Assembly (NCBI GenBank): GCA_965153455.1
Contig: OZ234494.1
Location: forward strand, 12,586,001-12,650,000
DNA length: 64,000 nt
Source: Sphagnum compactum
Taxonomy: Eukaryota
Direction: 5' to 3'
Shown piece after piece: positions 10,879 through 55,445 of this stretch (the stretch's first letter is position 1; every line of letters starts with the position of its first letter). A program made the translations under genes and the position numbers. The notes under the pieces are model-generated. The model was not told the DNA's origin and made no database searches. It was given only the letters and a program-made list of their open reading frames with translations.

Positions 10879-11800
10879 GGGTGAAAGTGCACTAACAACC
10901 TTCATTAAAGACTATATGTTCGAACATGTGAAAGTTCATCCCGTAAGAATTTTAACCAAGTCCAATGTAGGTGAAAACAATTCTGAAAAAATAGGTTCTC
11001 ATGCTTTTAATCATTATTGATGTATTAATGATATTCCAAAATCTTAACAAGAGATTTGACATCAATTGGATCATACTTATGGTTTTCTTTCCAACTTAAA
11101 TGCAACAATATAATGATTTGAAAATTGAACAATGTTGGTTTTGGATTTCATTTTGCTCTTTAATTACATAATATACTACAAAAATTAGGGCATTAGATCC
11201 TTATTTAAATAAACACATGTTGAACAATTCGTCTTGCCACCTTGCTACAAATTGATGGAGCACAAATTCATCTATCCTTGGTTTTAAATAGGCTACGAAT
11301 GAAACATAATTGGTATGCTTGTGTTCTAATCGAATCACTTTTTAGATTCCCCTTCACAATTATTGCCTACATGCACTTCTTGAAAGTATCGCTATGACAT
11401 AATATAAGAAGCATCAACTTATTATGAACAAAACTACAGTGGTTTAAAGCCACAAGATTAAGTGCATTGCCCCTTGATGAATTTAAATCCATGCCATACA
11501 TTAGTTTGCCAAGTAGATAGACAATGTGTTCCCATAGGTTAGTCACACCTTTCACAACAATCTTATGGGCATTGCATTATATTTAGATTGAGAGATTGTT
11601 GCAATTATCTCATTTGCAGACCTTTGAACATGGACATGAATAATCATTGTGAGAACCGTACATCCTCATGTTGTTAAAATTGTCCTTCAACTCTTAAATC
11701 TTTGAGTGATATTTCCAATAACATGAATTGAACTCCTTCAAACATTTGACAAATTAAGGTTTCAACTTGTTGATGTAGTAAAGCCAATTCTTACACCAAG
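10879..11800 (-). mobile_element. Decayed DDE transposase remnant with Sola2-type motifs, ending at a GGGTGAAAG TIR-like end
   Basis: Minus-strand translation across stops and frameshifts gives, in order, RIGFTT.NKLKP*FVKCLKEFNSCYWKYH, KGQC..CG, KEQNEIQNQH..FQIIILLH, EYH*YINND*KHENLFFQNCF.LHW.WL and HIVFNEGC. This resembles the IGFS.F..L[RK]P / CxCxxH / QxEIQSxHW / ISDD.KHD / FSDGC motif order. Confidence 0.55.
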
Positions 11801-13462
11801 ATTCTCCTTCACAAAGCTTATGTAAAAATAAAGTTGAAAATTGAACAAAATTTCATCTTAGAAAAAAAGAAGGAATGAAGATTACAAGAAACACTCGAAG
11901 GTCAAAGGACCTACAAAAGGAATATACATTGACTCAAAACAGTATCCTTACTGTCAAGGACAAAAAGTAGGATATCAAATGAAGAAAGAATTTAGCATTA
12001 GGACAAGGGCCAAATAATCGCTTCAAAAGTCCTTTGTAGTTTAGGACATCCTTCTAAGCAAGGATAACAAGTTGGAAATCAAATGGAAAACGATTCTTAA
12101 CAAAATATTGAAGGATTCAAAAAATCTACAAGAGGAATATTTCCTAGATTTTAAAAACTACAATTTTTGAATTTGGTTAAACATTTAGCACATACTTAAA
12201 TTTAAGGAATCACATTTTCTAAGTCAAACTAGAAACATACTTAGACTTATGGAACTACAATTCCTAACTTTGATTGAAACTTAGGACATACTTAAACTTA
12301 AAGAACTATAATTCCTAAATTTGACCTATACTTCATACTTACAAACTTAAAGAATTTTAGTTTTTGAATTTAACCTAGACTTAGGACATACTTACAAGCC
12401 AAGGATGATGTTCCTAACATCTTATGTAAAAGGGATGTTTTGACAAAATGGTACAAGATAAAAAGAATTTACTCAAAGAAACATAAAGGACTCAAAACCA
12501 AGTTGATGCATGAACTAAACATGTCACATGACTTTAAAAATTTGCGTTCAAAATCACACAATTTTATGCACAACAAAAGGAATCAAAATACCTATGGTTC
12601 CAAAAGATAATGGGTTACATGCTTAATTTATACATCTTTAAAGTGGTTGCGGTGTATGATGACATATTTCCTATTTGGACTCACACGGGTGTTCATTGTC
12701 CACTAACCAAGAACCATGCTTTGAGTTTCTTCATTCAACAAATCTTTTTGATGAACCTTGGAGCCTATTGCCCATTCTACAATAGACCCTTTGTTTATCC
12801 CCTTTGCTTGAAAGGATTTGGGACTAACACCCATCAAATCACCTATAGAATTGAAGCTTTGGGTTACATCTAACATTACCATGCTTATAAATCACATTTC
12901 TAGTGTGTAGATCATCAATGGGAAAGGCACCCTTTACTTGTTGTCATCCTTCTTTCATACTTTCAACTATGTGGTAAGTAGTTTCATACACTTTGGAATG
13001 TATACACTAGAAGAAAAAGGTCAAAACATAACCACTTGATTTGCAATTACATGTGACTAATTGTTACATACAACTACTTACCTTGGTAAGTTTTGTAATT
13101 GTTTCTTAAGTTTTATATTTTTTGGTCACCTTTGTGACTACTTTATAACTAATGGCTTAATCATCCACCAAATGATGATTTCTAACATTATTTTCATCCT
13201 AAAAGGCCCATGTATGGCCTATTAATCACAAAATAACTAATTAGTTTCCCTTATGTGCATAATATGATATATCATATCTACATTAGTGAAATATCTAGGT
13301 TATAATACATGAAGGTGTTCCTAAGTTCACTAAAGATGTACAAGTGTATGATGGGCATATGTATAATGGGTGTATTAAAGTATTATGTAGCTTGTATCTA
13401 GAGCATGTTAAAATATATATATCAATCATACATAAAAGGTATATATGTATATTTTAAGTATA

Positions 13463-14246
13463 GGGTGAAATCACATTACGGTGACTCCCTTTGGGGCACT
13501 TTTGGGTCTAATATTATAATACATATAGTATAATTATTCCAAAAGCATGATACATTTAATTTTGGGTATCAATTTTGGTTTTTGGGCTCTACAACAATTA
13601 TTTTTACAAAACTAAAAATAATAATTAATTTCATTATCTATATTGAAGGATCCATGAATATATTTATAATATACATTGGTATATAGGGCCATAATTTTGT
13701 TTTGACTACACTAACTTTAAGGTTTCATTAGTCATAAAAATAATCAATTTTAATGAAATTAAAAAATGACCCATCTAGCTATGCTTGTCATTTTTTATGT
13801 GGATGTGATTTCTTTTCAAATTTTCAATTTACCACACACTTATTGCATCTTTGTTGAAAAAACTCATTTTTTGAGATGAAAAACTTCAAATTAATCACAT
13901 GGTATCTACACATGGTTTGTATTATGTGAAATGACATGGTTCAATATACCTTCAACTTTCACAAAGACTAAAAATCATTTAAATTTTTTTTGAAATATAT
14001 TTTTGTTTTTGAGTACATAGGTACATTATATTTGTTTCCACAAATATATTCCAATCTCCCACTTTATAAAATGAAATAAAATAGTTTTTTTTCTAACCTC
14101 TTGCTTAGGTTATATTGTAACATAATATGCAAAAATACTATGAAAAATCTTTCAAAAATTTGAAGTGGCATACACTCAAACATGCACATCTCTAAAAAAC
14201 AGTACAATGTGACACCAAAGGGGGTCACCATAATGTGCTTTCACCT
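13463..14246. mobile_element. MITE (784 bp) with ~37-bp TIRs and TATA flanks
   Basis: Left GGGTGAAATCACATTACGGTGACTCCCTTTGGGGCAC; right (reverse complement) AGGTGAAAGCACATTATGGTGACCCCCTTTGGTGTCAC; TATA on both sides (13459-62 and 14247-50). Confidence 0.85.
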
Positions 14247-14659
14247 TATATTCAAGTTGTATCCAAGGTTTATTATACCTATTGAAATTATTATTATTGT
14301 GTTATTATTAATATTATTTAAATGTTGATTATCATGATTAATAATACCTATATTAAGTGAGATAATAAAATATTAAAAATATTAAAAATAATTTTTAATA
14401 TTATTATTACTAGAACATACTAATTATTTTAATAATTAGTATAAGATTTATAATTCTGGTTTAGTTTAATGTAAAATTGTCTTTAGATGATGTTATAGTT
14501 GAGCATGTAACCTTTCACAATCCAAGCTCAATTCAATTTTTTTCATTTTATCTTATTTAATTGATTTGATTGATGTGTTTGTTAAATAATTGCATGTCAT
14601 TTTTGTTTGAATATGAATATAGGTGATAAGGGAGTTGTCTTATTAATTGGTTGTAAAAT

Positions 14660-14950: not shown

Positions 14951-17900
14951 AATGAAAGAGTAATTTGAAGATTAACTTGATTTTTATTTTGATGATGTGA
15001 AAAAGTTGATTTCTAGACATGTGCATTGTGTGTGGCAATTCAAAAAAGGGGTAAAGCATTTTATTTTATTTTGTCGGTGACTTGTTTTCTTGGATTCTAT
15101 GGTGCCATATGGTAAAGTTTTCAAGTGTAGGTGATGATAAAAATTTGTTTCATTTTGTTACAAGTGGTTTTCATATTTGTTCATGTGTCAAAGGATTGTT
15201 CCACCCATACAACATACACATGTGTATGCTAATTAGGAGATGATGATGTTATGAGGGAAACGATGAAAAGTATTGTTCAAGTTTGTTTGGGGTTTTGAGG
15301 AATTTGGTGTTTTCATTCAGGGTAGTCTACTTGGAGTTTGGTGTTTCCTATAGTGCTTAGTTTTCAAATTATGGTTCATTGGGCATTTACTTTGTGTTTT
15401 TATATGGGTCATTCTAGAGCTTGAGGGTGGCTATTATTCAAAATTGTGGCTCCTCAAGGGCATTCACTTTATGTTTATTTTTGGGTTATGAGTGTTGGGT
15501 CAACACACATCAACATGATGATCAATCCTAGACACAAAGTGAAATCTAATTCACAAACGCTTATAAGATTTCATGTGTGTATGCTTGGCATTGGAAATTT
15601 GATCCACAAAAAATATGCAAGATTTCATTGAACAATTCAAAATGAACATTGAAAGTTTGATCTATAGAAGAGATGTTAGGATTCCATTGAGCAATTCAAG
15701 GGTACTTGGATATTATGTTTAGTGATTCATGCATTGTGCATTTGCATTTTGATATCTACAAGTAAACTATTTTTTCATCTTAGCAATTTCCAGTTGGAAA
15801 ATAAAGGATACAATGAATTATGGGGTAAAATCCCATTGGATTTGCAAGTTATTTGATTAAGTACAAAATGCACACATTTTTTTTTAATTTAACTGGATTT
15901 ATATACATTTTAAAAACTTAAATTAGGGTATATGATTGGGAGACCCAGACCTTACCCTGATCCTTAAACTTTAATTTTTTTGATACCTAGATCCTACCTT
16001 AAGAATAATATAAACCTATTGTGTGGTTGTATAAAAAACATTACACTTGCATATTTTTAGTATCGACATTATTTTTGTTAGTTTTGTAGTGTGAATTTTA
16101 TATTTCTTCCTTCAATCATGGACATTAGTTTAATTAACTTCTTGTTTTTATCATTGTGGAGAATCTTTTGTTTTCATTCAACAATATCCACAAACCTTAT
16201 CAGAATAATATATTTTGAATTGTAAAGAATTTTTTTAAAAAATTTCTTTCATTTCCACCTCCTCCTTGAAGGAGGGTTTTTAGGATAGGTTACAAGGGTG
16301 GAACCTTGGTAACTCAATTGTGGTGTGACACCAAATTAGGGTGATGAATCCCTAATGGATGGAAACATCATCAGATCAACTACTAAAAACTAGAAAGCAA
16401 CAAACTTTCGATATATAGTTGATGGTGATGGGAGGAGAGGTCTTGTGGACGGTGAGGTTTGCATGTTGTTTAATTGTTTTCTTGCGAGTTAAAAGCAACA
16501 ATGTTGTCATTGTAATTTTTGGATTTACCAACGCTGAACACTAATTTGCATTTTTCTTGTTCTTTATGTTGAAGGTGTGTTATGTTGTATTTGGATGATG
16601 TGTATTATGGAGCTTCAAAGGGGTGTTATATAAGTGGGGCATTCTAGATGTAATGCGGCATAACATGAAGCTAAGTTTCTTTTTCATCTTAGTTAATCAT
16701 AGGTTAAAGTTATGGAATATTAGAGAAATGGTGTTGGACGAATGCCTTGCTATTGCTAGGCACTTTGCCTTGGAGATATATTTTTTTATTGCACCATACA
16801 CTTCAAGGGAAAGGAGCTAAAAGCAGCAATAATGTTTAAAGATCAAACTAAGGGAAGGGAAATGATGAAGCACCTTAGGGATTTTAGAATGGTCAAAACG
16901 ATAATATAATTTGTGATGTGTTTGGATGATTTTGGAATTCTATGGGAGAAATGTTGATTTTGTGATTTTGGGAAAGAGTACTGATAATGGGAACTCTGAA
17001 AGGAAATTATGTTATGGGATTTAGTGTACTATGGGGAATTCTATTAACAATATCTCTGGGTCATTATTTTTTCTTTATTCAACTTCCTAAGTTTCAATGT
17101 GTATGGGCCATGTTTCATCTTACTTGTTTGGGAGCAAATGTCATGTGAATTGAAGACTTCAGATTATGTGTAGTATTAAAATGTGATTGAATATGTTTCC
17201 ATTTATTTATTTGGGAACCAATTTCATGAAAGTTGGGGGGGTTTTGTAATTACTTATATTGCCACAATCATGACCAATGGGTTCATTGAAAGAGAAGTTG
17301 GAGTGTGCTAATCCCTTATGGCCCGTAGTTTAAATGTGATTGTATAAGCAACAAAGAGTTTGGACATTACTTTATTAACATTTTCACTACATTAAAATGT
17401 TTTTTGTTTTTTGATGATTTAATTACAATAATAAGACTATAAATTTGAGGACAATTGTTTCTTGAATTTTTTTTGGTGATAGTGGTTCATCCATCCACAA
17501 CTGAATCAAACCTAGTTTCCAATGGATGGTGCATTGGTGGGTGTTATGTCACATAATTTGATCAAATTTCCCTTTAAACCACAAAATAACCTTTTGTTCA
17601 TGGAAGATTTCAATTCTATTATCATACCACTTTCCATTTTTGTAAAGTTAAAGATTTTGGAATGTCTTTGTTTATATAAGGAAGGGAAGGAACTTTTTGT
17701 GGGCTTGTCTAAGGTTTTGAAGCTTAGGCTACCACCCTAAGTTGGTCCCCAAAAAAAGCCTCACAAAAATTGTTAACCTTATAGTGACCTTGTGTTAAAA
17801 AAAACAAGGACAAATGTCTCCAAATGCATAGAATGATTATCATAATCAGATTTTTTAGAATTGCAGAAATACTGAAAAACTAAAATCATGAAAGTATCAA

Positions 17901-19469
17901 TCTTATAATGTCCAAATACTTGTTACATGTCCAATAAAATTTAAACTATGGGTCATTAGGGATCAACACACTCCAATTTCACTCTCATTGAACCCACTAA
18001 TCATCTTTGTGGCAATTTTAGTTGTGACAAAACTTATCCCCAATTCATATGAACTTGTTTCCCATAAAGACAAGATGGAACACATCCCATATACAATACC
18101 TCAAGAGGTTGGAGATAATGTGGAGCTCAACACATATAGATACACCACACAACCTGAAATTCCCAATTCATATGACATCTGCTCCCACAAAGGTACTCTA
18201 TCCTTGGGGAACAAAACCAACCTTTCTTCCGTAGAATTCTAGAATCACCCAAATAGATCACAAAATCACTTACCATTCTAATTCCTTCCAAAACCCTAGG
18301 GTTTTTCATCATTTCCCTGATCAAGACCCCTAAAATCTGCTTCTAAACTTACATTCTTTCTTTTGAAGCTCATGGCATAGCGGAAATGCATTACTTCAAA
18401 AAGAAGGATGGTTCATGGCAAAAGGGCATTCTTCCCCAACCAACATAATGCTGAAATTCTAGACTGTAACTCCTATAAGCATGCATTGCCAAACAAACTA
18501 ACAACAACAAAATTAAGGAACTTAGTTCTAGATCTCTTTCAATTGCTGATGGAACTCCTTCATATAGTGTTTACCTCTTGCACTCTTTGATTCACATCCT
18601 CCAAGTCATTGTGCAAAAACTATTCACTCACATCAGCAATGGAGAATAACCAAATAACTCCAAACATCAAGTGCCATCAAAACAGCAAAACCACCGTAAG
18701 CAAGCCAACCCACATAAGAACACAAATGCAAAGAAAAATCGTTCACAAACCCCTTTCCTCCCATCACCATCAATTGTTGAAAGTTTGTCACTTGCCGATT
18801 TCTGACAATCGATGTGATGATATTTTCATCCATTAAAGTTAATTTTAGGTCACAACCGATTTTAATGTCTACCCACACACTTTTACAAGTATTTTCTTAA
18901 GCGAGACAGGCAGCCATTCACTGGCTCTACTTTTGGTGTTCTCCATGTTAGTAGGTGCAAACCTTCCTGGCGCTCTTAAATGTTTGACGAATAACTTAAT
19001 AAAGATGCTTGAGATGTGAACAAGCCTTCAAGAACTGGTTAGGCTTTGGAACAGGCCCTGGAATAACCCGTTACCAATGAACCCAGTACCTGGGTGGTGG
19101 TAGGGCCAGTTCCAGAGTTCATAAAGGTCCAAAGAGCACGAGCAAGGTATGCACTAACTTATCTTTGCAGAGTGTTACGATTGGTTCTTCAAACAACTGC
19201 ATAAGTGAGGAATCGCCCAAAGTTAGAAGAAGACTTTTATTGTTCTTATTGAATTCTCATACTGTAAACTCCGTTAAATTTGCAATTTCTAACTTTAGCC
19301 TTTCCACCCATGCTCCTTGAACATGCCGATTTGGCAGCTTGAATGTTCAGCCCAGACTGCAGACTGTGTGTCTGGGGGATCTCCATCTCTGCACTCCATC
19401 TAATTAATTGCAAACTGCACCTTTTTGTTGCCTCTTTTGGCTATGAGCATCTACAGCAGAGTGATGAGT

Positions 19470-19630
19470 ATGTGACCCTGCAAAAATGTTTCGTACATCC
19501 AAGCTTAGTTATTCACTTTTTTCCGACCCCTGGCCATAACCACAAAAAGTGGGACTGCAAATAGGTAGGAGATTACTAATAGCAAACCACCTGGACGAAT
19601 CATTATGATTGGCCACTCAGAAACAGGAGC
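19470..19630 (+). repeat. Dispersed repeat copy (second copy at 34589-34755)
   Basis: Both copies share ATGTGACCCTGC...ACATCCAAG.TTAGTTAT...GCAAATA.GT.GG.GA.TACT.ATAG.AAACCACCTGGAC.AATCATTATGAT. Confidence 0.8.
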
Positions 19631-22094
19631 AAGGAAAACGTTCTCTGGCAGGAAACCCAACACAAGGCAAAACTCACAGCAAAAAGTATGCTGTGAGTTT
19701 TACTAGCCTCAGCAACCCAGCCCCCATGACTGCACCAGTTCTGTTTGGGATGAAATAGTTCTCATCCCAGTAACCAAACCTGGTGCAGTCAAAGAGGTTG
19801 AGTCAAAGTTTTCTTTTGCCCGCCCTTTAACCTTTAAATTTTTTTTTTATACGTCCATACCTACCCCGTTCACCCACCTACCCTTTTGCACATCCTTGTC
19901 GCCATTTCCTTTTACAATTAATTTTTCAACTACCTAGGTCTCATGATGCAGCACTTGGCCTCTAGAAAACCTTGATATAACCAATAGTTACTTGACATTG
20001 GTTCCACATTTGAGCTATACTGGGTAAAAACATAGTCAAAGGATCCACCAAAGTGAGTGGACACTTCTTAAAATTGTATTTTTGTATGTTTGAAAGATCA
20101 CAAGTGAAGCATAATAGTTTAGATTGGCATTACTTTTTTGGAATACTTTTCATTAATTGCAATGTTTACATGTTCAATACTTGACATAAATAAATAAAAA
20201 TTGCATGTTGAAAGCATTCAAACCTTAAGAGTGGATAGTCCTTGGTTTTTTTAAACGTCCTTTCTTTTTACCAAATGTGCACCATTCCTTCTAAAAATTG
20301 AAAAGGATTTTAACATTGATGATTAGAAGGGCAAAAGAATTTGAACTAATGATTTTCTTTTATAACCCATTTGAGCATTTGGCTCAAAAGTGCTTTCAAC
20401 CTTGAAAATTATTAATTTTAAAAATGTGCCTTTAACAAAAGTTGTTCATGTTTATGTAATAGAGGGCATGAATTCATAATATACATGATATAAAATTAAC
20501 TTGTAATCAAAATTATTTATATTTAAAATGCAACGTTAAAAGGGGTACCCGAAATGCAAATTTAAAGTTATAAACCAACACAAAAATGACATTTGTCATG
20601 TCCTTGAAAAAGGACTTTTACTTTGGTGCCCTTGGTTCTTTTGATCGTGTTTTCACCATATTACTAATTCATGGCAAGTTCAATATTACTATTGTAAATA
20701 TAAGATCAGCTACTATCCTCCACCATTTATAACATTAAAAAATATTACACAAGCAAAAAACCTTAATGAATAATAAAAATCATAAAAACTAGTACACACA
20801 AGGAAAAAAAATTGTCAATTATAAATTACCATCATTTTGTTTCATTTCCTTTCACTCATGTATACACACATTTGCTTGCACTCTTTCATATTTTCTTTCA
20901 CTCATACACACAATCTCTTTTATGTGTTGGCATTTTCATAATTTTTTTCATTTTCAAACAAAAAAATATTAAATCATCATACATCATAAGTTTTTTTAGC
21001 ATTGTCCAACATTCACAACCATTAGTATAACTCAAAATCATTTTGTGAAAAATAATTATTGATAGGTTTTTTTTTTAAAAATTTCTTGAAAACATTATTG
21101 CATTCTTCACATGTTCCTTTTGGGGTGCAAATATTTTTTTGTGAAATCCTTTTTTAATAAATGTTGAAATAATATTTCACCGTATACTTTATCAAATCAA
21201 AATATCATCTACATATTTCATTATAACGTTCTAATCTTGAATAGAATATGTATTCAATTTGAATGCCATATCCAAACATCAAGTAAAAGTTATTTCATCA
21301 TAAAAATATACCTTGAATATGCATGTAATTTTTTTGAAATTTTGTTTGAATAATATTCCGTTATTTATTACCTTGATAAAATATTTCGATTTTAAATCCA
21401 AATGATTTTTTAATTTTGTTTTGAAGTAAACACATCCATAGCATAATTCATAATAACAAAATTAACAACCATAAACTATATCAATATTCATCTTTTAATT
21501 TAAAAATGACTATTTTTTTCTCTTTTCCTAGTCTCTTGGAATATTTTGCTATATATTTTATTACTTATGATATATGTTTATTGTCATAGACTTTTAAAAT
21601 CATATTTTGCTAAAAGAAATCAAACCATAAAATAGCAAAATTAGGCAAATATGACATAACATTCACCTTCAAAGCCATAATATGTTTATAACATATCTAA
21701 AGATAACATACAACTTCATAAATTCAAATATACTAATATGACCTTTGCCACTAGCCCAAACATGAAAATAGTCTAAAATCCATTGAGAAATTGAGTTTAG
21801 GTGTGCTACTTGGAAGGATTCTGTATTAGTGTTTTTTTTTTTTTTCTTCTTCTTTTCTTCTTTTCCAATTTTGCGATCTCAAGATTTTGGTGGATTTTTT
21901 CATTTTTTGAGTTTCTTTTTCAAATTTAGAATTTTTTCCCCCAAAATTTTCCAATTTTTTTTGTAACCAAAATTTGAAAATTTGCCAAAATAAATTCACA
22001 TGTGCTAAGCCTCTAATGGGCCTATGTTGGAGGATTGTTTCTGATTCATTGTAATTGGGACTAGCCCATTGAACATTATGTGGTCTAGCAAATA

Positions 22095-23130: not shown

Positions 23131-25469
23131 TGAAAATTTCAGGTAAATTTTAATTTAATTTTCAATGTTAGAAAATGATTCAATATTCAAAATCTTTTAC
23201 ATTGCAAGTCCAAATGTTATGAAATGAGGTTGGTATAGTTTTACTCATCAAAAGTTCTCCAAATATATCAAGAATGTGATCGAAAGCCAAACTATACCTT
23301 CCTTCATATAAAGATCATGAAATCTTCATTTATTAAACACATATTAAATATACAATATTTAACTTATTTGTAGGAGTATAACATTGGGAAACCATTTACA
23401 ATCAATACAAAATATATGATTATCACATCATCACCATAAAAGACACTAAATGGGGTGTTTTTCCAAAGGGATCAAATTATCATAGCATATTGTTTAACCC
23501 CAAAACAAAAGAAAAACTTTTTGCAACAACATCAAAAGTAGCTAAACTAACATTGAAAAAATAGAAAAACACAATGGAAAGTGATGATGTAGAAGAATTT
23601 CATAAAGTTGAAATATTTGACAAGGACAATAGATTAATTGATGGGGACACAAGTAAACTCAAGAGATTTAATGTCCATCAAATGTTACATAGGATATTGG
23701 AGGCATTTAATTGCTTCCAAGAGACATGTTTAAACATTAGAATTAGCTATAGTTAAATTATTAGACCAATCAAATATGATCAAAGACAATTATAATGTTC
23801 ATAGACTTGTCATATGAATCCATTTGAATCAATAAAAGTATTTCCAATCTCTTTTATCATCATATTTTTCAAATTGATTTCCTTTCATACAATAATCATG
23901 TAATTTTAAATTTTAAATTATATTTCATTGATTTGTATTTTTATGAATTTTTTTATGATGTTCCATCTATTTTCCCCCTCTTTTTATGTGTATTTGTTAC
24001 AACCATTCTAACACCAGCAAAACTTTTATTGCCATTGAAGGTGTTGGAATTTAAGGGCAAAAAGAGGAAATCATAGTTCAATGTAGTCAAATACTATTTT
24101 GTTCCATATAATTCTTGAAATATAATTGATCTAGTGTTATTTTGTAAGCCTTCACATTTTATTTTTTACATTCGATTTTTTTAATTGAATTTTTTTTGAG
24201 TAATTAATAATTTCAAATATTTATATTATAAAATATTTTTTAATTTTAAATTTTTTTGAATTGTTGAAAAGAACATGCTAAAATTATTAAAAAATCAATT
24301 ACAAGCATTTACACATCAAAATATCATATATCAAACATCATTTATTAAAATATCAACTTCATCCATTGATAGAATTTTAGGTCTTCATTATAGGTACAAT
24401 TATAACTAACCATTTGAAATGACGAATCAAACTATTGTGAAAAAACCACAAGCAAAAGAAAAGGAAAGAACAAAATAGAAAACAAAAAATGCCCAAAGAT
24501 GGGAATGAAGACAAAACAATTTTGAAAAAAAAAGAATACATCAAAAATAAATATTTAATTAATAATAAAAGAAAAAAAAAGATATACACAAAATATTTGA
24601 AATTTTTTTAATACAATAAACAAACAAACATTTCCCAACCAGAAACCAAAACACAAAATAAAATGTTTTGTAAAAAACAATTTAGCATTTCCAAAATTGA
24701 TATTCGAAAAGAATTATCAAGTGACACCAAATGTGTACATCAAAAATCAGAAAAACCTTATTGACAAAAGCCTATATTTCACATGAACATACATGTAGAA
24801 AAAAATAAAAAATAAAAAAAAATAAAAAAAATTGACAATCAAAATTGAAAGAAAAGAACTAAATTTTTTTAGAATTCATAAAAAAAGATGTAATCGATGC
24901 TAAAAGACAAAAAAAAATTCAAACACATAAAATATATGAAGAATATTTAATACAACAATCAAATATTTTCCCACCACAAATAAAAAAGAGAGTAATATGT
25001 TTTGTTTAAATCAATTCAACATTTTCACAAGAAAATCTAATTTTGAATTTTGGTTATTGTTGTGTTTGCAATGAAAAAAAATTTATACATGAACTAATAA
25101 TATGTTATACCTCAAATCTTCAATCTTATTTGAAATATATTAAAATTTACTCAAAATGAATATTAAATATCATTTTGAAAATGATACTGAATTCATCTTA
25201 AAATAATTAACAAGTGACACCAAACATGTATAACAAGAATTGAATGGACTTTTGTTAGCAAAGGAAAGTATTTCAACAATTAGTCACTAATTTTTGTATG
25301 TAGAACTTGTTATGTTTCTTTAAAAAATAAAATACCAAAACTTGCATTATCCAATTATGGATTGACATCGCACCACCAATGTTACCAAAATTAAAAATGG
25401 TGGAAAAAACTTTAATTTCCATTGTTGTGCCATATTAGTTAAACTTGGGCTGCACACTACTATGCACTA

Positions 25470-26955: not shown

Positions 26956-27759
26956 GAAAACACACTACGGCCCCCAAGAATTGTAATCACAAACATAGAA
27001 ATTATGCATTTGGTTTTTTTGGGTACATGTGGACATCACATCTTGGATTATTTTTATTCATTTCAAGTATATTGCATTAGCTTTAAACTTAAAATAATTT
27101 ATTTAAAAAGAAACTCCAACAATTATAAATTTGAACATATGAAGTATATTTGTGTCAATATAAATATCATGGAGTTTGAAAAATTGCAAATATACTTCAA
27201 AACTAAGGTTATGGGTGGAATTTTTTAATGAATTTTTTAGTGATGAATGATATTGATATACATCAACTAAATCTAAGACCATTTAGAAGTTAATTTTTTT
27301 TGATTGAAAATCTATTAACAAATTTGTTTGTTTTGCACTTTTGGAATAAGAAATGCATAATTTAAATTCATATTTTTGAGAAAAAACCATAACTTTAAGA
27401 AAAAGGAGGAGATTTTATAGGTGGGCATTGTATTATTTTTTCATTTTTCTTTGGTTTGGTAATGTGTCATGAACCACAAACATGAGGCCCTACGGCTATT
27501 GAAAAAGTTTATGTTATATACTTTATGCATATTGATTTTATCTAATCCTCTTCATCTAGCCATTGGATCAAACTTAATTTTGATTCAAAATGAGCTTTGA
27601 GTTTGAAAATGTTGTCATGCACATTTGAAAGTTTTTTTTTTAATGTTTAGGATTTTAAAAAGATGCCAATAAGATTTCAACTTACCACATACCTATCATA
27701 CTTGTTATTAATCACTTTTTTTTGGTGAAAAGTGGTTCACCCATAATGTGTTTTCACCC
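26956..27759. mobile_element. MITE of the GGGTGAAA-TIR family nested in the Helitron
   Basis: The right end CCATAATGTGTTTTCACCC matches the right TIR of the 13463 element. The left end GAAAACACACTACGG matches 13/15 but has lost the terminal GGGT. Confidence 0.6.
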
Positions 27760-28573: not shown

Positions 28574-29309
28574 GGGTCACAATTTACTTGAGTTTCCAAT
28601 TTTTATTATGTATTTGTAGCCTTTCAGTATTTCCAAATGCTAGAAAAAATTTACACATTTCCACTAACTTTCCCACTTTGGGTTCAAATATATGAAAATT
28701 ATTGGTATTTTATGAAAAGATTTCATATTTTATGGGTATTTTAAAAATCTAGGGCCCTTTATAAACCATATGGCTATAACTTTAAGAAGATTAATTCCAA
28801 ACATGAAAATATAGGTGTCACTAATATACCTCCTTGTTAACACCTTCAAAATTGGTTTCATACCATTTCCTAATAAAATAAGGTGTTTTCCTATGTGGAA
28901 AATTTTCAACAGTTTCAGAAGGATCCAAATACACAAGTTTGCATAGTCATTATTAATGGATGGGCCTAAAAATTGGTGAAAGGATGCTTCTAATGGATAT
29001 TGATGAAAATACACCAATTTCTTTTTTCAAAAAAATAGTTATAAACATAAAAGTTCCATACATGTATGAGATGTTATTTTGTGGGACATACATTTGGTGT
29101 TTCTACAATACTACCAAAATACCATGTATATTCATATTATGGATATGTCTCAACATTTTTGTGATGTGTTTGTTGCATATTACATTATTGCAATTTCAAA
29201 TTTTTATTAAAAAGCACCTAACATTGCATTATATGTTATTTTGTTCAAAAAAACACACAAAAAGCTAGATTGGACAATATTTTCTAAACATTTAGGCAAA
29301 CCATGACCC
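28574..29309. mobile_element. MITE (736 bp) with GGGTCA termini and a 4-bp TSD TGAA, nested in the Helitron
   Basis: TGAA|GGGTCACAATTTACTTGA ... TTAGGCAAACCATGACCC|TGAA. All TIR mismatches are transitions. Removing the element plus one TGAA restores the frame ETHFNVEMRLLHK. Confidence 0.75.
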
Positions 29310-34588: not shown

Positions 34589-34755
34589 ATGTGACCCTGC
34601 GAAAATATTTTTCACATCCAAGTTTAGTTATGTACTCTTTTGCAACCTCAGAAATAAAACTGAAACTGGAACAGCAAATAAGTGGGGGACTACTGATAGA
34701 AAACCACCTGGACCAATCATTATGATGAGCCAATCCGAAACACTGAGCAGCAGTT
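34589..34755 (+). repeat. Dispersed repeat copy (homologous to 19470-19630)
   Basis: Direct alignment by eye with the 19.5-kb copy. Confidence 0.8.
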
Positions 34756-35184
34756 AGATCATGTTTATTACACTTTTTTCTGCAGGTTCACAGGCCTGCT
34801 TTGCCGTTTACCAGCCACGGCACCAGTGCACAATTGTGGTGAGCCAAACTGGCATATGTTGGATTTTCTTCATCCAATTTTATTGTGCAGGATCACATAC
34901 CGAGCACTGCTGGAGATGCTCATTAGCTGCGGAGAATTGATATTCCTCATCGTGTTCATCATGGTTTTCTTGGCTAAGCTAATGGCAGGGGCATGAATTG
35001 TGGGGTCTATGTTGAGTTCACGAAACAGAAGTGTAACATTTGGTGAGGTAGTAGTTGGCAAGTAACCAATTGTGGGGTCATGATTCTGCTGCACTAGGAT
35101 GTTTTCATTGTTGCTTGTTGTGTAGGTGGTCTCAAATGTACTTGTGTTCTTAGAGGAAGTTGACATGTTCCACCTGAGGCAATG

Positions 35185-42260: not shown

Positions 42261-45200
42261 TAATTTCTTTTATTATTTGAATCATTATGGACGATAGTTG
42301 AGATTTTGAGAATTATGTTTTATTTTCATTTTTACTAATTAAATAATAATAAATAATAATAAATTCAATTTAATGTTTTAGATATAAAAATGACATCAAA
42401 ATTAACATTATATTCACATGCCATAGTTAAAAAATGATTGATTTCAGTCACATTAGTCAAGCTCCACAAATCCATGTAGGTGTTGCATCCACCTACATAA
42501 TAAGCATATTATAATAAATTATATGGTACATAATATGTCATACGTAATGCGTAATATATCACATATAATATGCATCCACACATTTTATCGCATCAAAATG
42601 AATAGTTTTTGCTAAAAACACATTTCAAAATTCATAATTTAAAAATAAAACTAGCTTTTAAATCAAAAGTACCAAAATGTGTTGAAAACATGAATTTCAC
42701 TAATTTAAACTCATGTTGCTTTTTAATCATTAATATTAAGATCATCTCCAATTTTGAAAAGGAACGGTGCATATTTGATATTAAAAATTGAGTGGTTATT
42801 GAAAAAAAAAAGATTGTCCACACAATAGGGTTTTGAATGCTTTAAATATGCACAAGAATTCTTCAAACAATATCAATTTTCATTGAATATTGATAACTGA
42901 AACTTTGTAAATAAATGACAATCCATTCACATCCCTTTGTGACTCCTTTGTGACTCACAAAAGCTCAAGTGCTAGCTGGTTGAGAGAAAAACTCATAACC
43001 TTACCAAGAAGACACTGATGGGTATATATGCCTGGGGTTTGAAGGTTTGGGCTTATAACCTAGATTGATTTTAGTGTTGGGTTTGGGCATGGTTATGAAC
43101 AAATGTTTTGGAGTAGGAAGGTGGGGGTGGATACTTGAATTCCGTATCTACCTGGGTATTAACTTAGGGTGGGTTTTTGAATTTTTTTGCCTTTGATCAT
43201 TACAAACATGCATATCCAGGGTTGATACCTGGACGGGGTGTCATCGTGTTAAATTTCAACCCTGCCCAACACTGGATTAGACTTCAGACCTATACAAAGG
43301 AGTTTAGAATGATGGGTTTAGGGTTGAGGGTTTAAATACAAGTCACCAGATTTCTATAAGAGGTTTCAGCAAGTAAGCCAAACATGATGGCAGAAAGGCC
43401 AGTTAAAATTTGGAACCTTCATATTTAGTTTTGCAGCCAGTTGTGGCTAAATCTTCTTATGGATGATTGCCAGTCCTATGACATCCCAAAATTGGGCAAA
43501 AATATGCCAGTGCTCCTGCTCATGTTGTTGTTGCTTCAAGTAGTTCCCTGCATGACCAACTGTAGACTACAAAGGTACAAGTTGCAAGGACAAAGTTTTT
43601 TAGAGTTGTCAGCTTTGGGTACATACAAGTAGAGAAGTGAGAGACATAATAATTTATTAAAAGTAATTTCATTCCAACAAAATACTCGAGGACTTTAATG
43701 GAGTAAAGACTTTGATGATTCAACAATTATTGGGTTTAAGCTGAACAAAATAGGGGAGTTGCGAATCTTGGTAGACAAACAACAAACTTCTTTTGGACTC
43801 TTGTCGTGTTCAATTGTAAGTAAAAAATTGTGCTAATTTACTCTAAATTTATTATATCCTTGTTGGTGTGGGGCTTTTTATGAAGTTCTTCAATCACATG
43901 GTCAAAGCAACAATAAAATCAGTTTCACAAGTGAATTTCATGATTTTTTTCCCAAATGTATTAGAGTATGTGACACCTTGACCCCCCATGTATACATACC
44001 TATCATTGTATCCAAAATGTGACACCTCCATAATGCCACAAAATTTTCAGTCCGTAGGTGTCATATTGAGGACATCTAACAATACAACCAAACAAGTGTC
44101 ATTTTGACGACATCTAACAATACACAAAGAAACTTGATGTGTGGGATGGGAGGAAAAAGCCAAATTTCCTTAATGCGGAGATTGAAAAGGTCTCAATAGC
44201 ATTTCAATCAAAACTAAACTATTGAGAACATTGGTACGTGAAGTCCCGCATCATCTCATTGCTAGGTAGTCACAAGTTACAACCTTACTAATTATTATTG
44301 TTCAATCACTAGTCTCTAGCATTGAGGAGGTTATTTAGTCATCCTCCCCGCTACCCAGTCCCTTTACATGCCCTTAGCATCGCCCCCGGCCCCCTCCCCT
44401 CCCTTTTGAGTACTTATACCTAGTGATTAAAGAAAGATTAGATTGATTAAGAAACCTAATGAATAGACATTATCTACCTTATGAAAAGTATAAGTACACT
44501 TGTTGAGACTGGTTTTGATGCTTCAAGTTAATAGCAATCAAATTGGATGGTAATAAGATCTAATTCAACATTTTGAAATTCGTGGTTTTATCAAATTAAA
44601 GGTTGTTACCAAAATGCTATTTAAGTGACCATATTTAAGTGAACATATATTTTTATTTTTGTGGTCTTGACATTACTCTCACATCTACTTGGGGAAAAAA
44701 GATTTTTGGTTTTACAAAATTAATTGCAAAAAATATTGAAGTTGTCAAGTAATTAAAACGTTACCTCAAAAATATTTTCAATAACTCATTACATTCGTAC
44801 ATTTCACAAAATATTGATGTAGCCAACAATTATTCAATCATATGACCCGTATGTCGCGGGTGGAGCAACTTTTTGTAAACGCAAGGCCCGACATCAACAA
44901 CCTAGCCAATTGTGAAAAAAAGAACACTACATAATGAGCATGACGGGTACATGGTTCCCAACTCCAATTGTCATACAATAAGTTGTAATTAAGGTTTTTG
45001 AAGTTTGAACATGTCTTCTCATCATGCATTTGACTTTCACTAAAAAGTTAGATACCTTTGGAGAAGATTGGTGCAAGTCTTAGAATTTTTTGGTTTTATT
45101 TCATGATCAATTGATATTGTACATTGGCCATGTTTGTACTTTGTACGTCGAAAAGGTTGTTGTCAACCAATACTAATGTGTGCCAATTTCCAAACACATT

Positions 45201-48200: not shown

Positions 48201-48528
48201 AGATGATAATTTCCGCATGCCATAGTGTGAGAATTTTGAAATTCATTCATCTTATCTTGTTGAATAGGGATAAAATCTACTTTTCTCAAAGAAAAAATAT
48301 TTGTGAATGAAAATGAGGAATGTTTTGGAATATTCAGGAATATTTTAATTTTGGAAATGTAAGCTTCAAGTTTTATTAATTATTTGGCAGACATGTGCTG
48401 AAGCTGCCCGTGTACTACGGTATTTATTAACCAAGTACAATTGTGGCATAGGGATTCATCAAAGTTGAAGCCTTTTGTGTCAATTGAATTACCAATGTTG
48501 TGGAGGTAAATCATTTGTCATACATAAC

Positions 48529-48709
48529 TCAGGATACTAGACAAAGGTCTAAAACATACTTTGTGGGCAAAGAATAGGTATATGAGAAAGTTCTAAAAAC
48601 CCAAAATCCCTAAAACCCTAAACCCATATATATATAAAGTCAGGATACTAGACAAAGGTCTAAACATACTTTGTGGGCAAAAGCATAGGTTTATGAGAAA
48701 GTTCTAAAA
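48529..48709 (+). repeat. Local direct duplication of ~70 bp (period 111)
   Basis: TCAGGATACTAGACAAAGGTCTAAA(A)CATACTTTGTGGGCAAA...GAGAAAGTTCTAAAA at 48529 and 48640. Confidence 0.9.
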
Positions 48710-48834
48710 GCCTAGAAAACATATTTGTCTTTCTCCATTGTCAACACCACCTAATAACACCTTTAGGTTAATACAACAATTTACTTCTCCTCATGGAGTT
48801 TGCCCCTTAATGCATGTTAATTTAGTTTTTATAT

Positions 48835-49345
48835 GACACATGTTCGAGTCAATGGGTGGGAGGAGACTTGAGTTGTGATTCAATGATGGCAAAGAAAATC
48901 AGAAACGAATTCTAATCATGTTCAAGTCGATGGGTCCGAGACATGTGATTTGATGATGGCAAAGAAATTTAACAAACCTGATGATTTCACATTGATGGGT
49001 CGGAGACACGTGATTTGATGATGGCAAAAGAAATTTAACAAATCTGATGATTTCACATTGATGGGTCGGAGACATGTGATTTGATGATGGCAAAAAGAAA
49101 ATTAGCAAATCTTATCATGTTACCAATTTCATGGGTGGGAGACGTGATTCAATGATGGCAAAGAAAATCAGCAAATCTAACAACTTACAAAGTTAATGGG
49201 TCCAAACACACACACACATACACACGCACACAATTCAATAAATAAAAGGAAATTGGCAAATATAATCATGTTCAAGGTGATGGGTGGGAGACACGTGATC
49301 GAATGATGGCAAACAAAATTGGCCAATCTAATCATGTTCAAGTTA
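48835..49345 (+). repeat. ~62-64-bp tandem repeat, about 7 copies
   Basis: Unit CATGTTCAAGT.GATGGGTCGGAGACA(C/T)GTGATTTGATGATGGCAAAGAAATT. Confidence 0.9.
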
Positions 49346-50714
49346 ATTAGTGTATGTCATGCAAAGTGTTTCAAAATGTTGCCACATCAAATCTATAAGT
49401 GTTCCAAAGGATGCCATCCAAGCTAATTTGGTTTGAAATTTGGAACTTTGAAGGTCAAGGTAGGCTATTAGCAATAATAATCTGAAAGCGGTTAAAGGCA
49501 TAGCCCCTTGAGGGGAAAGCATTCCCAAAAGAAGGGGCCCAAGTGCATCAAGGCATTACACCTATTAAATAAGTGTAACCTGCATCCTCTTTTAAAGAGG
49601 CTATATTCCTGGATTTATGGTGGCCTCCATTTAGACTAAAAATTCTAACCGACTATTTTTATGACAAGGTGGTAGCTGAGTCCAACCCCAAGTTTAGGTA
49701 TGTTGCTCACTTGTGTGGGTGGGCTTTACCCATTGGGAAAGCACAAGACAAACATAAGTATGAACCTAAACATTGTTAGATCATGAGGCATAATAAGAAG
49801 GGAAGGATTCTTATGCTTGGAAGGAGGCTCTCTCACTATCAAGTGGAGTAGGCATAAGATCCCTCCACCTCTTTACTAGAGGGATGTTCATGGATATGGT
49901 GTGGCCTTCAAATATGCTTCCAAAATTTCTCCCAAGTGCTTTACAAAACTAATGTAAAAAGCACAGGTGCTGCTTGTACAAGCTTGGGAGAGCAGTTGGA
50001 CTTTCAGAGTTGTGCAAATGAACTGGGTTAAAGTGGTAGCCTAGTTGAGAGAAGGATCATTATTAGTCTCTAATCTCTCCAAAGGAAGTCATTTGGAGTT
50101 GGTGAAAGTCACATTAAGGTGGTGGTGAGTAGCTGAGAAAGGCAAAGTCACATGCTACCAGAGGCAGTGGACATCCAAAGGGCCCACACTTGGCTGTTGG
50201 GCATTGAGAGTTTCTAAAGGATTTTCACACTTGGCCTATTGTTTTTGGCACTTGACCAACTCAATTAATAAAGAGCAGGGCTTTGCTTCTTGTGGCCTTG
50301 GCAAATGCATTTTGTCTGAAGACACTAACTAGGGTTGAACCTTAAGATATTAGGGTTGACATACATGTAAAGATTGCAACAAGTGGGCTTGTCCCTATGC
50401 CTTCAACTTGAAGTGCTAGGATTTCACACTTGTAAAAAGCCTAGGATCTTAGGCATGAAGGCCAAGGACATGAGAATTTGAAAGGTTTAAGACTCAATGC
50501 ATGTAGAAGGTTACTTGACATTAGGGTTCAAGGGACTAGGAGTTGAAGCTTTAAGAATCTAAGACACGAGGGCAAGCTTGAGGGCATAAACATGATGGTT
50601 TGAAAGCCTAAGACATGGGGGCCTAGGGACATTAGGACTTTGAAACGATGGTTTGTTTTTTAAGCCCAAGTTGTTAGACTCTACGCCACAAAATTCTATT
50701 CCAAGACAAAGCAT

Positions 50715-53030: not shown

Positions 53031-53479
53031 GGATTGCCATCAAGTTAGTTGTTGGCACATGGTTGATCCCAAGTTGATGGGGTATTTAAGCAAAGCAAAG
53101 TAGAGAGGAACAGAAATCACTAGAAAAAGAAAACCCAGTATTTAACACCAAACCCTAATTATAGGCGCCTGAGTTGGCTTTTGGCCCCCACCCAAAATTC
53201 AAATCTCAGGATCTTTAGCGTTGGTTTGACGGTGGATTGGTAACAGATTGGGGGTGAATATGTTATGTTCCTTCACAGCCAGGCTTTAATTTTCTATGTA
53301 AAGATCTAGATATGAATTAAAAGGTAGAGCTAGATTTTCTTATGTGTTAAGAAAAAAAAATGCCACATTGACATTGATACTCCAAAGCTCAGGCTAATGC
53401 TGCCTTTTTTTATAAATTTTTTTTTTTTTTTTAAATTTAAATTTTGCTTCGGTTGTCTACTACCTGTTTCTAGTACCAT

Positions 53480-53770
53480 TGTTTTATTTTTGGGCCGAGA
53501 TTTCGCCAAATTTCCACCTAAAAAATATGATTTTCGACCTATGCAAAGGATTTTGCATGGGAAAAAAAATGGCACAAATTCGCCAGATTTCCAAAAAACA
53601 AAATAAAGAGTTTCTAGATTGCCAGATTTGTATGATAAGTTCCAGTAGGTAGCCAAGAATATAGAAAGATTCTGTTTTGTTTTTCTACTTTCATATCTAA
53701 TCTGTAGCCAAATGTGGCTAAATCATCTTATGGACGGTCGCCCACTTTTGATACATCACAAAATTCAAAA
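53480..53770 (+). repeat. Dispersed repeat (partial copy at ~43430-43500)
   Basis: TCGCCAAATTTC...CGCCAGATTT...GTAGCCAAGAATATAGAA.GATTC...GCCA.ATGTGGCTAAATC.TCTTATGGA; the tail recurs at 43435 and a fragment at ~33005. Confidence 0.65.
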
Positions 53771-53836
53771 TTGAAAAAAAAGGGAAAAAAAAAAGAACAA
53801 CAACAACCATGTTCTCTACTACCTAACAAAAGTAGT

Positions 53837-54882
53837 GGGTGAACCAGCAGCACCTACACTGGTACCATGGTAAAATCCCAGTGTTGGGGCAGGCTGAGGT
53901 TATTTGGAGGTTAAATTAAGGTTCTAGGTTAGGTTAAGTTGTGAGGTATACAGACTGGAGGTTCACAAAATTGAGAAATTTGGATTTGAATTGAGACTTT
54001 GAAATCATCTCTTTTAAAAACTTGAATGGGGGACTACCTATTGTCTTTGTAAAAGAGGTTAAGGTTTTGGTTTTTTTTTTTGAAAGGTATACGCATCAAG
54101 GCTCAAAGAAACAACTCTCCCCCCTTTTCCAAATGATAAAACAAAAAATGGGTTTGATTGATGCCTTGTTTCCTTGGCGGTCGGGATTTTGTTTTCTTGA
54201 TTGCATAGCGTTTCTCAACTTTTTTCCTCCTCACGAATACACCTCACTTTCATGAGTGTGGGTACATATTTATTTATGTAAGTTATTAATTTTTGTTCGA
54301 TGCAATGTAAATTTAATTGAACCATTTCTTAACCCAGATCAAGTTCCCAATTTTTTTTGAAAGTCTTTGAAACTGGAGGTTTTATAAATCTAGAAATTTT
54401 TTCCCTCAAACCCATACCAAATGATGAAACCCTGCCAAACCTTTATAAAAATAAAGCACCCAAGAAAGGGAGAGGAAAAAAAAAACAAGGACCAAAGTCT
54501 AGGCAAGCAAACAGCTCAAAAGAGGCGGCGGGCCACAAGGAGGTAAGGGAACCAGTAAGTACCAAAACCTCCACCAATTGCTTGAAGCATATTAACTGAA
54601 GAAAGGGCAGGTAAACCCCATAAAACTCCAACACACTAAAGGTTCTATGAAATCAAATTAAAATTAAAAATTGAAATGGAAGGTAAACCCCATAAAACTC
54701 CAACACACTAAAGGTTCTATGAAATCAAATTAAAATTAAAAATTGAAATGGAAGGTTCCTTTCAAAATCAACAACCAGACTTCATGGGTAAAAAAACTCC
54801 ACATTACTTTGAGTTCCTTTTGAACACTTAACATTTCCTCCAAGAAGGTGAAGGTAATAATAGTGTAGGTGCTGGTTCACCC
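53837..54882. mobile_element. Non-autonomous TIR element (~1.05 kb) with GGGTGAA termini
   Basis: Left GGGTGAACCAGCAGCACCTACACT; right (reverse complement) GGGTGAACCAGCACCTACACT. Flanks TAGT and CAGC differ by two C/T transitions, a possible 4-bp TSD. Confidence 0.7.
54609..54756 (+). repeat. Perfect 72-bp tandem duplication
   Basis: AGGTAAACCCCATAAAACTCC...AATTGAAATGGA twice, with AGGT microhomology at the junctions. Confidence 0.95.
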
Positions 54883-54902
54883 CAGCCATTAACTGAAAGC
54901 TC

Positions 54903-55440: not shown

Positions 55441-55445
55441 ACTTA

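Follow-up and report, generated by a model that had tools for sequence, protein, structure and literature searches.

A probable Sola-type transposase remnant and GGGT-ended inverted-repeat elements in an intergenic stretch of a moss-like plant

The DNA studied here, 64,000 nucleotides long and hereafter called the window, appears to be AT-rich intergenic sequence from a moss-like land plant. It raises the question of whether a broken transposase and the small inverted-repeat elements near it are the debris of a single kind of transposon. The initial annotation had proposed that a Sola2-like family once mobilised several MITEs with unrelated interiors in a bryophyte. A bryophyte source is plausible, since a host gene in the window has its nearest match among named proteins in Sphagnum (70% identity). 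We favor a reading of this sort, with a probability of roughly 0.6: the window would be the graveyard of one cut-and-paste transposon kind, Sola, likeliest a Sola2 remnant, together with its GGGT-ended passengers. The Sola2 label is the most likely one; it draws on the family marks given below and on indirect features, with Sola compared through printed descriptions and end consensi.

The transposase remnant and its relatives

A transposase remnant had been placed on the minus strand at 10890-11800, and homology searches uphold it. Its core (10911-11774, minus strand) corresponds to approximately residues 116-400 of P0047, a 774-aa relative from Ceratodon, by phmmer, tblastn and profile HMMs. 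The core has 43 phmmer relatives at E<=1e-3, three of them at E<=1e-10 (best 1.4e-29); tblastn against P0047 and P0061 recovers it as four pieces in three frames with a summed E of 6e-32, and it is the sole window match of the profile HMMs of alignments A4 and A5 (domain i-Evalues 1e-19 to 3e-3). The homology extends rightward to 12774 through an N-terminal piece (12598-12774, minus strand), which tblastn aligns to residues 34-91 of P0047 at 39% identity (E=1.9e-4). This piece is weaker than the core, because the A4 and A5 profile HMMs run over the window give no match to it and because its tblastn match to P0005 reaches only E=0.51. The two pieces are separated by an 830-bp gap, either an intron or a later insertion, in which Tandem Repeats Finder reports a repeat of about 50 bp at 12226-12382 (periods 51 and 49, about two copies each, 79-83% matches).

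Across the whole remnant there are 15 stops (13 in frame in the core pieces and two in frame in the N-terminal piece) and three frame changes. At the place of the relatives' catalytic motifs the window reads ...IFVVYYVIKEQNEIQNQHC..., with the first catalytic aspartate replaced (LIFVVYYVIK where relatives have LIDFAENYSFK), and tblastn and the profile HMMs find neither the second catalytic aspartate nor any of the sequence beyond it. As judged from these alignments, the remnant is a genuine decayed transposase of a D-D-D family. Two database relatives have lost the same catalytic aspartate as the window copy, and the relative P0004 terminates precisely at the position of a stop in the window copy.

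Sola2 elements are marked by 4-bp target site duplications (TSDs), GRG termini and the motifs DFxENY, QxEIQSxHW and SDG. These motifs, on which the initial annotation had relied, are indeed carried by the longer relatives, as IDFAENY, Q-EIQS-HW and WSDGC together with HGKGPxDG, but the window itself shows no literal DFxENY or QxEIQSxHW. The named family members belong to the moss Ceratodon, the charophyte alga Klebsormidium and a brittle star; the neighbors of the family in the Atlas are unnamed. In alignment A4, D185 is invariant in 12 of 12 rows and D277 nearly so (>=90%), after which the HGKGPxDG block follows. The predicted model of P0061 places the motifs on a b1-b2-b3-a1-b4 core (pLDDT 70-88) whose strands and helix succeed one another as in an RNase H-like core. 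The best PDB matches in a fold search are all RNase H-like enzymes, but none is significant (no match at E<=1e-3), which counts against our assignment. The relatives carry the D-D-D triad expected of Sola, on a predicted RNase H-like fold; the window copy itself lacks this triad. Pfam scans of the remnant and of 28 relatives gave no domain, rve included, and the part of the Majorek 2014 supplement examined holds no sequence with these motifs.

The remnant had also been said to abut a terminal repeat, and this too stands. A candidate left terminal repeat (GGGTGAAAGTGCACTA, 10879-10894, plus strand) lies about 70 bp from where the transposase homology stops, and matches the consensus of elements A and B described below (GGGTGAAANCACATTA) over 16 nt with three mismatches, all transitions. 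The match covers only 13 of 15 specified bases, and matches this loose occur nine times in the window against 3.62 expected by chance, which weighs against our reading; in a 100-nt inward-facing target beside the end of the transposase homology, only 0.0028 such matches are expected. A second point against it is that a search for the right terminus, from 12774 to 13463 and further on, found none. We propose that 10879-12774 may be a dead, internally deleted autonomous copy that keeps one terminal repeat and, on the minus strand, the transposase gene's first half.

Inverted-repeat elements around the remnant

Four elements with GGGT(G/C)A ends had been annotated, and the ends, coordinates and flanks of all four (here A to D, plus-strand coordinates throughout) were confirmed. 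Element A (13463-14246), a non-autonomous inverted-repeat element, has arms that align with a single gap and agree in 32 of 38 columns, and is flanked exactly at the repeat boundaries by identical TATA tetranucleotides (13459-13462 and 14247-14250). Element B (26956-27759) has an intact right end, GGGTGAAAACACATTATGG, which shows no mismatch to the A/B consensus and equals the left end of A at 15 of the first 16 nt. Its left arm matches from GAAAACAC onward, with the terminal GGGT replaced by ACAA; the left end is thus lost, as the annotation had it, and therefore no duplication is readable. The 19-nt A/B consensus occurs three times in the window against 0.17 expected, a count that 0 of 100 shuffles reach. 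Elements A and B are, by their repeats, one inverted-repeat family, and share the candidate terminal repeat of the remnant.

Elements C and D share less with this family. Element C (28574-29309) is an old inverted-repeat element whose GGGTCA ends match exactly; over the first 26 nt its arms show 15 matches, 10 transitions and one transversion, and its TGAA flanks are identical. The arms of element D (53837-54882; ends GGGTGAACCAGCA) agree at 21 nt, interrupted by a 3-nt gap but by no substitution, yet its flanks, TAGT and CAGC, agree at only two of four positions, and no duplication of 4-10 bp was found at nearby offsets. Past the first six nt the repeats of C and D are unrelated to those of A and B, and the interiors of A to D are unrelated to one another. 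The annotated single family is supported for A and B, which share the 10879 repeat; C and D have only GGGT(G/C)A in common with them.

Element E (15406-18250, flanks ATAT and AAAT) was absent from the earlier annotation. It has ends of the type GGGTCATTCTAGAG ... CTCTAGAATCACCC, and the exact 11-nt GGGTNATTCTA occurs only at its two inward-facing ends (0.16 expected; two occurrences in 0 of 100 shuffles), with a shared subterminal CTCCYCAAGG about 50 nt inward. The end motif recurs in degenerate inner copies on the plus strand (16636, 16924 and 17033) and on the minus strand (19069), and the element overlaps a large palindrome (16353-18835). The profile HMMs gave no transposase signal inside A or E.

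These observations allow a second reading, which we hold only tentatively, in which the remnant is of Sola type and the small elements are a mixed lot: only A, B and the 10879 repeat would belong, and C, D and E would be unrelated elements or chance repeats. The unrelated interiors, the repeats that diverge after six nt and the missing duplication of D are as this reading expects, as is the chance frequency of the end motifs, GGGTGAA occurring 13 times against 8.5 expected in the window (no enrichment) and GGGTCA at the chance level. Configurations of the quality of C are frequent by chance unless GGG is required, with 82 in the real sequence against 55.5 in shuffles, which also tells against our own reading; for those that start with GGG the expectation is 0.13. 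Against a mixed lot stand the ten transitions to one transversion in the arms of C, unlike chance, with its exact 4-bp flank; the 11-nt ends of E, found twice; and the presence of four to five GGGT-ended elements in 45 kb beside a transposase whose animal relatives have GGGT-type ends. In our reading, C, D and E probably belong with A, B and the remnant.

Target site duplications and superfamily

Among the classic plant superfamilies, Stowaway elements duplicate TA, Tourist TWA, CACTA 2-3 bp, hAT 8 bp and MULE 9 bp. We scanned for TSDs 2-10 bp long, allowing each repeat boundary to shift by as much as 4 nt in either direction. For the five elements of this window the 4-bp flanks are exact in A and C, agree at three of four positions in E and at two of four in D, and are unreadable in B, so that of three elements credited with apparent 4-bp TSDs, A and C keep theirs but D does not. 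The failure of D despite its near-perfect arms, the partial flanks of E and the lost end of B count against our reading. Identical 4-mers at such distances have a chance probability of p=0.0079, and at least two exact cases of three, p=1.9e-4. No TSD of another length fits any element, except that in A a 7-mer with a single mismatch can be placed at asymmetric offsets. The claim that the duplications are unlike TA, TWA, 8 bp or 9 bp proved correct at the symmetric boundaries of A, and for C and D.

That the small elements are common plant MITEs (Tourist/PIF, Stowaway, hAT or Mutator) with misread boundaries is very improbable. Many PIF-type repeats begin with GG, and the flanks of element A can alternatively be read as TA with a repeat starting TA(G/A)GGTGAAA; against this, shifting the boundaries of C or D by up to 4 nt yields no duplication of 2, 3, 8 or 9 bp, 4 bp is the sole fit for A at symmetric boundaries, and the 110 window ORFs of at least 75 aa contain no PIF, hAT, MULE, CACTA or mariner transposase domain. 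Tourist/PIF-Harbinger elements resemble those of the window in being small, AT-rich and non-autonomous, with short G-started inverted repeats, and in being common in plant intergenic DNA; we rejected PIF/Harbinger on the absence of TWA at any offset and of DDE_Tnp_4 or Plant_tran domains in the 110 ORFs or the relatives. For hAT and Mutator, neither an 8-bp nor a 9-bp duplication was seen within 4 nt of the boundaries of A, C or D, and for Tc1/mariner (Stowaway), TA is possible only for A with shifted boundaries, C and D lacking TA at either end. Ginger2/TDD elements make AT-rich 4-bp duplications with a preference for TATA (excerpts of PMC3845634), as in the flanks of A, but Ginger transposases are integrase (rve) relatives, for which there was no match in the remnant or the 28 relatives scanned, and TGAA lies outside the TATA preference.

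Sola elements combine a DDD transposase with 4-bp duplications (excerpts of PMC10741241), so the chemistry and the exact 4-bp flanks of A and C fit Sola. In 2017 Pfam still lacked a model for the superfamily (PMC5751038), and a dictyostelid Sola2 has an 888-aa transposase and AT-rich 4-bp duplications (excerpts of PMC3627910). The window family resembles Sola2 in its D-D-D transposase, the variable AT-rich 4-bp flanks of A and C, the lack of a Pfam model and full-length relatives of about 850-890 aa. Length is a weak criterion: the animal-type relatives (841, 870, 872 and 878 aa) approach the dictyostelid protein, whereas those of plant type span only 628-774 aa, and some of these may be incomplete. 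The window copy further differs from Sola2 in being dead and lacking the second and third catalytic regions, and in that element D has no duplication. Eleven of the 14 curated Sola2 consensi from bivalves were compared at their 5' ends: two start with GGGT(C/A)ATTCT and three have G(T/C)NATTCT within the first 13 nt, like the GGGT-type ends of the window and in particular the GGGTNATTCTA ends of E, but the other six differ, a further point against Sola2.

The transposase could instead belong to Sola1, Sola3 or a yet-unnamed D-D-D group, 4-bp TSDs and G-rich ends being shared superfamily traits, although we consider this doubtful. The Sola groups reportedly differ in termini and share little sequence identity, according to the 2009 abstract of Bao, Jurka and Kapitonov. 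The unnamed Atlas neighbors suit such an assignment, and so does a review table that lists Physcomitrella patens elements as Sola1 rather than Sola2 (PMC9033089). Sola1 is described with AWWT 4-bp duplications, GGAC... ends and, in an insect, a 630-aa ORF (excerpts of PMC3845634). Points in common with the Sola1 of Physcomitrella or of insects are the moss host, 4-bp duplications like those at A and C, repeats that begin with G, and the spread of non-autonomous derivatives in trans, but TATA and TGAA do not fit AWWT. Sola2 is further favored over these groups by the Sola2 motifs of the initial annotation, which predicted those of the relatives exactly; by animal-type relatives nearer in length to the dictyostelid Sola2 than to the insect Sola1 ORF; by ends like those of curated Sola2 consensi and unlike two Sola1 consensi (GTGACCC and CGTCGCG); and by the DNA/Sola-2 that RepeatModeler reports in a conifer.

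Proposed mobilization and repeat annotation

If the Sola2 reading is correct, the enzyme would bind the terminal inverted repeats, cut the element out and insert it again into a target opened by cuts staggered by 4 nt, the repair of which would leave the 4-bp flanking duplication. We infer that this transposase family mobilized the small elements. Intact copies at other genomic sites may have moved these non-coding passengers in trans, and the passengers would since have decayed, mostly through transitions. Full-length transposase copies in the source genome would then be expected to have termini related to GGGTGAAA.

The element set is real but fairly ordinary, and the kind of transposon is already known. 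Excerpts of two reviews list Sola in the moss Physcomitrella (PMC10741241, PMC9033089), and RepeatModeler-type annotation reports 56.7 Mb of DNA/Sola-2 in a conifer and Sola in a fern; with Sola thus reported in moss, fern and conifer, the novelty is modest. The same calls indicate that common tools recognize coding copies, and the expectation that plant pipelines would misclassify this family is consequently overstated: it would hold only for the non-coding small elements, which would be missed. To our knowledge, tools built on the five classic plant superfamilies leave the non-coding derivatives of Sola unclassified. Since Sola elements are seldom curated in plants, a worked example joining a transposase relic, its terminal repeat, matching small elements and a 4-bp duplication would aid bryophyte repeat annotation and bear on the age of Sola in the green lineage; it opens no new mechanism.

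A bolder reading, which we think rather unlikely, is that of an old streptophyte lineage of Sola2 type, from Klebsormidium to mosses, which has the same terminal motif (GGGTNATTCT) as bivalve Sola2 and has spawned several MITE families. If true, plants and animals would have retained a common recognition of the ends by the transposase. Even a dead gene copy would have been copied under this proposal, a part of it that refers to the aspartate lost in two relatives and to the end of P0004 at the window stop.

The transposase remnant and its relatives

The initial annotation had called a decayed transposase on the minus strand, and the remnant is genuine. When 10883-11341(-) was translated through its stops and searched with phmmer, 43 matches at E<=1e-3 emerged among 1.84 billion representative sequences, despite the silence of Pfam, which reported nothing for 11 stop-free remnant pieces and two read-through translations and found a domain in 0/28 relatives. 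The matches include two short near copies of the remnant, P0003 (82%) and P0004 (73%), and the named relatives come from Ceratodon purpureus (two proteins, 504 and 774 aa), Klebsormidium nitens (one) and Amphiura filiformis (one); further animal-type relatives measure 841-878 aa. In the ESM Atlas the neighbours are eukaryotic clusters of cnidarian, molluscan and chordate origin. One of these clusters has DUF7869 on 17% of its members, and hmmscan finds no DUF7869 in the transposase family proteins. The openness of the remnant's frames is not evidence for a coding origin, since it is ordinary for the composition: of 6629 low-GC windows 150 codons long, 196 contain <=4 stops, and these are spread over many loci.

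Mapping by tblastn with 17 family proteins, together with two profile HMMs, resolved the remnant into minus-strand pieces that follow the 774-aa Ceratodon protein (P0047). Residues 116-171 of this protein correspond to 11768-11616, 209-267 to 11508-11338, 267-345 to 11341-11117 and 342-400 to 11129-10953, with an N-terminal piece, residues 34-91, at 12774-12598 detected by tblastn only (E=1.9e-4). The pieces lie in three frames and contain 15 in-frame stops, and the 830-bp gap between the first two contains a 50-bp tandem repeat. The first catalytic aspartate is lost (LIFVVYYVIK vs LIDFAENYSFK); this loss is common to the window copy, P0003 and P0004, and the C-terminal end of P0004 falls at the exact position of a window stop. 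Past the mapped end the profiles match nothing else in the window, and the copy thus lacks its second and third catalytic regions (about 370 aa). The motifs named in the initial annotation are present in the longer relatives, which read ...IDFAENYSFKGQDEIQSQHW..., ...VWSDGCAAQFK... and ...HGKGPHDG..., but not literally in the window: a six-frame search for DFxENY, QxEIQSxHW and HGKxxxDGxG gave no match in the remnant.

An AlphaFold model of one relative, P0061, built from a 12-row alignment, has a mean pLDDT of 60.7, with a core at pLDDT 70-88 comprising b1 (first D), b2, b3, a1 and b4 (second D), followed by an HGKG loop and a helix. A Foldseek search of this model against the PDB gave zero matches at E<=1e-3; the top non-significant matches were the IstA and ISCth4 transposases, PIWI domains, RNase H1, retroviral integrase and Metnase. 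The predicted fold is compatible with an RNase H-like core, and no more.

GGGT-ended elements and the candidate terminus at 10879

The four non-autonomous inverted-repeat elements, A (13463-14246), B (26956-27759), C (28574-29309) and D (53837-54882), all lie where they were first placed, and their interiors are mutually unrelated. The arms of A are identical in 32/38 columns, and those of D agree over 21 nt interrupted by a 3-nt gap and are free of substitutions. The right end of B matches the left end of A at 15/16 nt, and its own left end reads ACAA in place of the expected GGGT. The 19-nt consensus of the terminal inverted repeat common to A and B occurs three times in the window, where 0.17 occurrences are expected; the short motifs GGGTGAA (13 observed vs 8.5 expected) and GGGTCA (22 vs 21.7) are not enriched there.

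Target-site duplications were sought systematically at lengths of 2-10 bp and offsets of <=4 nt. For A (TATA/TATA) and C (TGAA/TGAA) the sole reading is 4 bp, and for D, flanked by TAGT/CAGC, no duplication was found over this range. The 4-bp duplications proposed in the initial annotation are exact for A and C and fail for D. Identical 4-mers at spacings of the A, C and D type arise by chance with p=0.0079, and in at least two of three cases with p=1.9e-4.

The first 26 nt of the arms of C show 15 matches, 10 transitions and one transversion. Configurations of this weak quality, defined as an exact 6-nt end, >=11/16 matching positions and a 4-bp flank, are common by chance (82 in the real sequence vs 55.5 in shuffles); with a GGG start, 0.13 are expected. 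Element C is credible solely through this GGG start and the bias of its mismatches towards transitions. Weak tblastn matches of its interior to the transposase (E 0.36-0.97) were seen by neither profile HMM and are attributed to chance. A de novo scan for inverted repeats with duplications from exact seeds missed both A and C and gave no useful excess. Directly after the right end of D begins a tandem repeat (54896-55451) whose copies are about 70-74% identical.

Element E (15406-18250) came to light when every GGGT...ACCC pair in the window was scanned. Its exact end motif, GGGTNATTCTA, occurs in the window only at 15406(+) and 18250(-), facing inward, with 0.16 expected and two copies in 0/100 shuffles. 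The flanks, ATAT/AAAT, are identical at 3/4 positions, a subterminal CTCCYCAAGG is common to both ends, and the end motif recurs in degenerate form at 16636, 16924, 17033 and 19069. A 2.5-kb palindrome (16353-18835) extends across part of the region, and profile HMMs gave no transposase signal inside the element. Its ends resemble some of the curated bivalve Sola2 consensus ends.

Transposase homology stops at about 10950, and at 10879 stands GGGTGAAAGTGCACTA, which differs from the A/B repeat, GGGTGAAANCACATTA, by three mismatches, all transitions. Equally loose matches number 9 in the window vs 3.62 expected, so the motif alone would be weak proof; the chance expectation for a 100-nt inward-facing target beside the homology break is 0.0028. 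We read 10879 as the putative left end of an internally deleted transposon copy, for which a search between 12774 and 13463 and beyond found no right terminus. Loose matches to this repeat elsewhere, at 15497, 15823, 16323, 20386 and 47170, and the 62.6-64 kb region, are at chance level, lack a partner and were rejected.

Probable assignment to Sola

The papers defining Sola are reportedly those of Bao et al. 2009 and Yuan and Wessler 2011. Later work describes Sola as DDD transposases with 4-bp duplications and inverted repeats of 11-1124 bp, with the moss Physcomitrella among the hosts (PMC10741241); a review table lists 'Physcomitrella Sola1' (PMC9033089), and in 2017 Sola is noted as lacking a Pfam model (PMC5751038). 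The hallmark of Sola1 is said to be AWWT, with an insect ORF of 630 aa (PMC3845634), and for Sola2 in dictyostelids a transposase of 888 aa with AT-rich 4-bp duplications is described (PMC3627910). Among bivalve Sola2 elements, compared over the first 400 nt of 11/14 curated consensi, 2/11 start GGGT(C/A)ATTCT, a further 3/11 have G(T/C)NATTCT close to the start, and 6/11 end differently (PMC10294476). The literature text searched contained no occurrence of DFSENY, DFAENY, DFVENY or DFGENY, and one portion of the Majorek 2014 supplement gave no match to the family motifs.

The transposase family fits Sola and leans to Sola2, a placement by features: the DDD chemistry, the apparent 4-bp duplications, the length of the protein, the GGGT-type ends and the lack of any Pfam domain. 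The initial interpretation of a Sola2-like family is partly supported, and the observation behind it is confirmed. Lists of plant superfamilies include Sola (PMC10741241, PMC9033089), and assembly tables give 56.7 Mb of DNA/Sola-2 by RepeatModeler for Cryptomeria japonica (PMC11539532) and 1.57 Mb of 'Sola' for C-fern (PMC6890710). Finding a family of Sola type in a moss-like genome thus adds to a kind already known, and the suggestion that standard pipelines would misclassify such elements fails for coding copies, which common classifiers label, as with DNA/Sola-2 in C. japonica. The open-access text searched yielded no description of Sola2-type MITEs in bryophytes.

Host genes and other repeats

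The window is land-plant nuclear DNA. Pfam identifies a VAN3-binding/FORKED-like host gene (Auxin_canalis and PH_2) at about 58.9-61 kb, in the interval 57726-61000. It also reports CBS-domain exons between 4.9 and 6.3 kb and, at 179-445, a Tudor piece of the PTM/DIR17 type. The 160-aa Auxin_canalis exon has its best named relatives in Sphagnum jensenii (70%) and S. fallax (65%), and matches a transcript-like 540-aa record at 98%, which makes the donor moss-like but none of the annotated mosses. The VAN3-binding/FORKED-like gene is surrounded by long (GA)n/(CT)n tracts (56484-56514, 58728-58780 and 61318-61367). G+C is 24-34% across about 6-33 kb and stays <40% in most of the sequence as far as about 54 kb, and this low-G+C stretch is packed with decayed repeats.

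Within it, a small element at 34566-34921 has 35-nt inverted repeats (GAGCATCTCCAGCGG..., with 89% complementarity and 286 nt between them) and a partial copy at 19445-19631 (77% identical); it is a repeat family different from the GGGT-ended elements. The AT-rich blocks 7100-7930 and 24090-25340, cross- and self-similar at 57-68% identity, resemble decayed satellite. Telomere-like short runs, GGGTTTAGGGTT..., at 43314-43333 and about 48606-48625 are inverted, about 5.3 kb apart, and adjoin a tandem array (48520-49347). A direct repeat (62690-62805 and 63761-63879; 76% identical, about 1.07 kb apart) may mark the two ends of a small terminal-repeat element. Finally, an inverted pair of about 300 bp (20202-20492 and 42555-42852) is 69% identical, and its first copy has the ends GTTGAAAGCA...TGCTTTCAACC, with a loose likeness to the A/B repeat.
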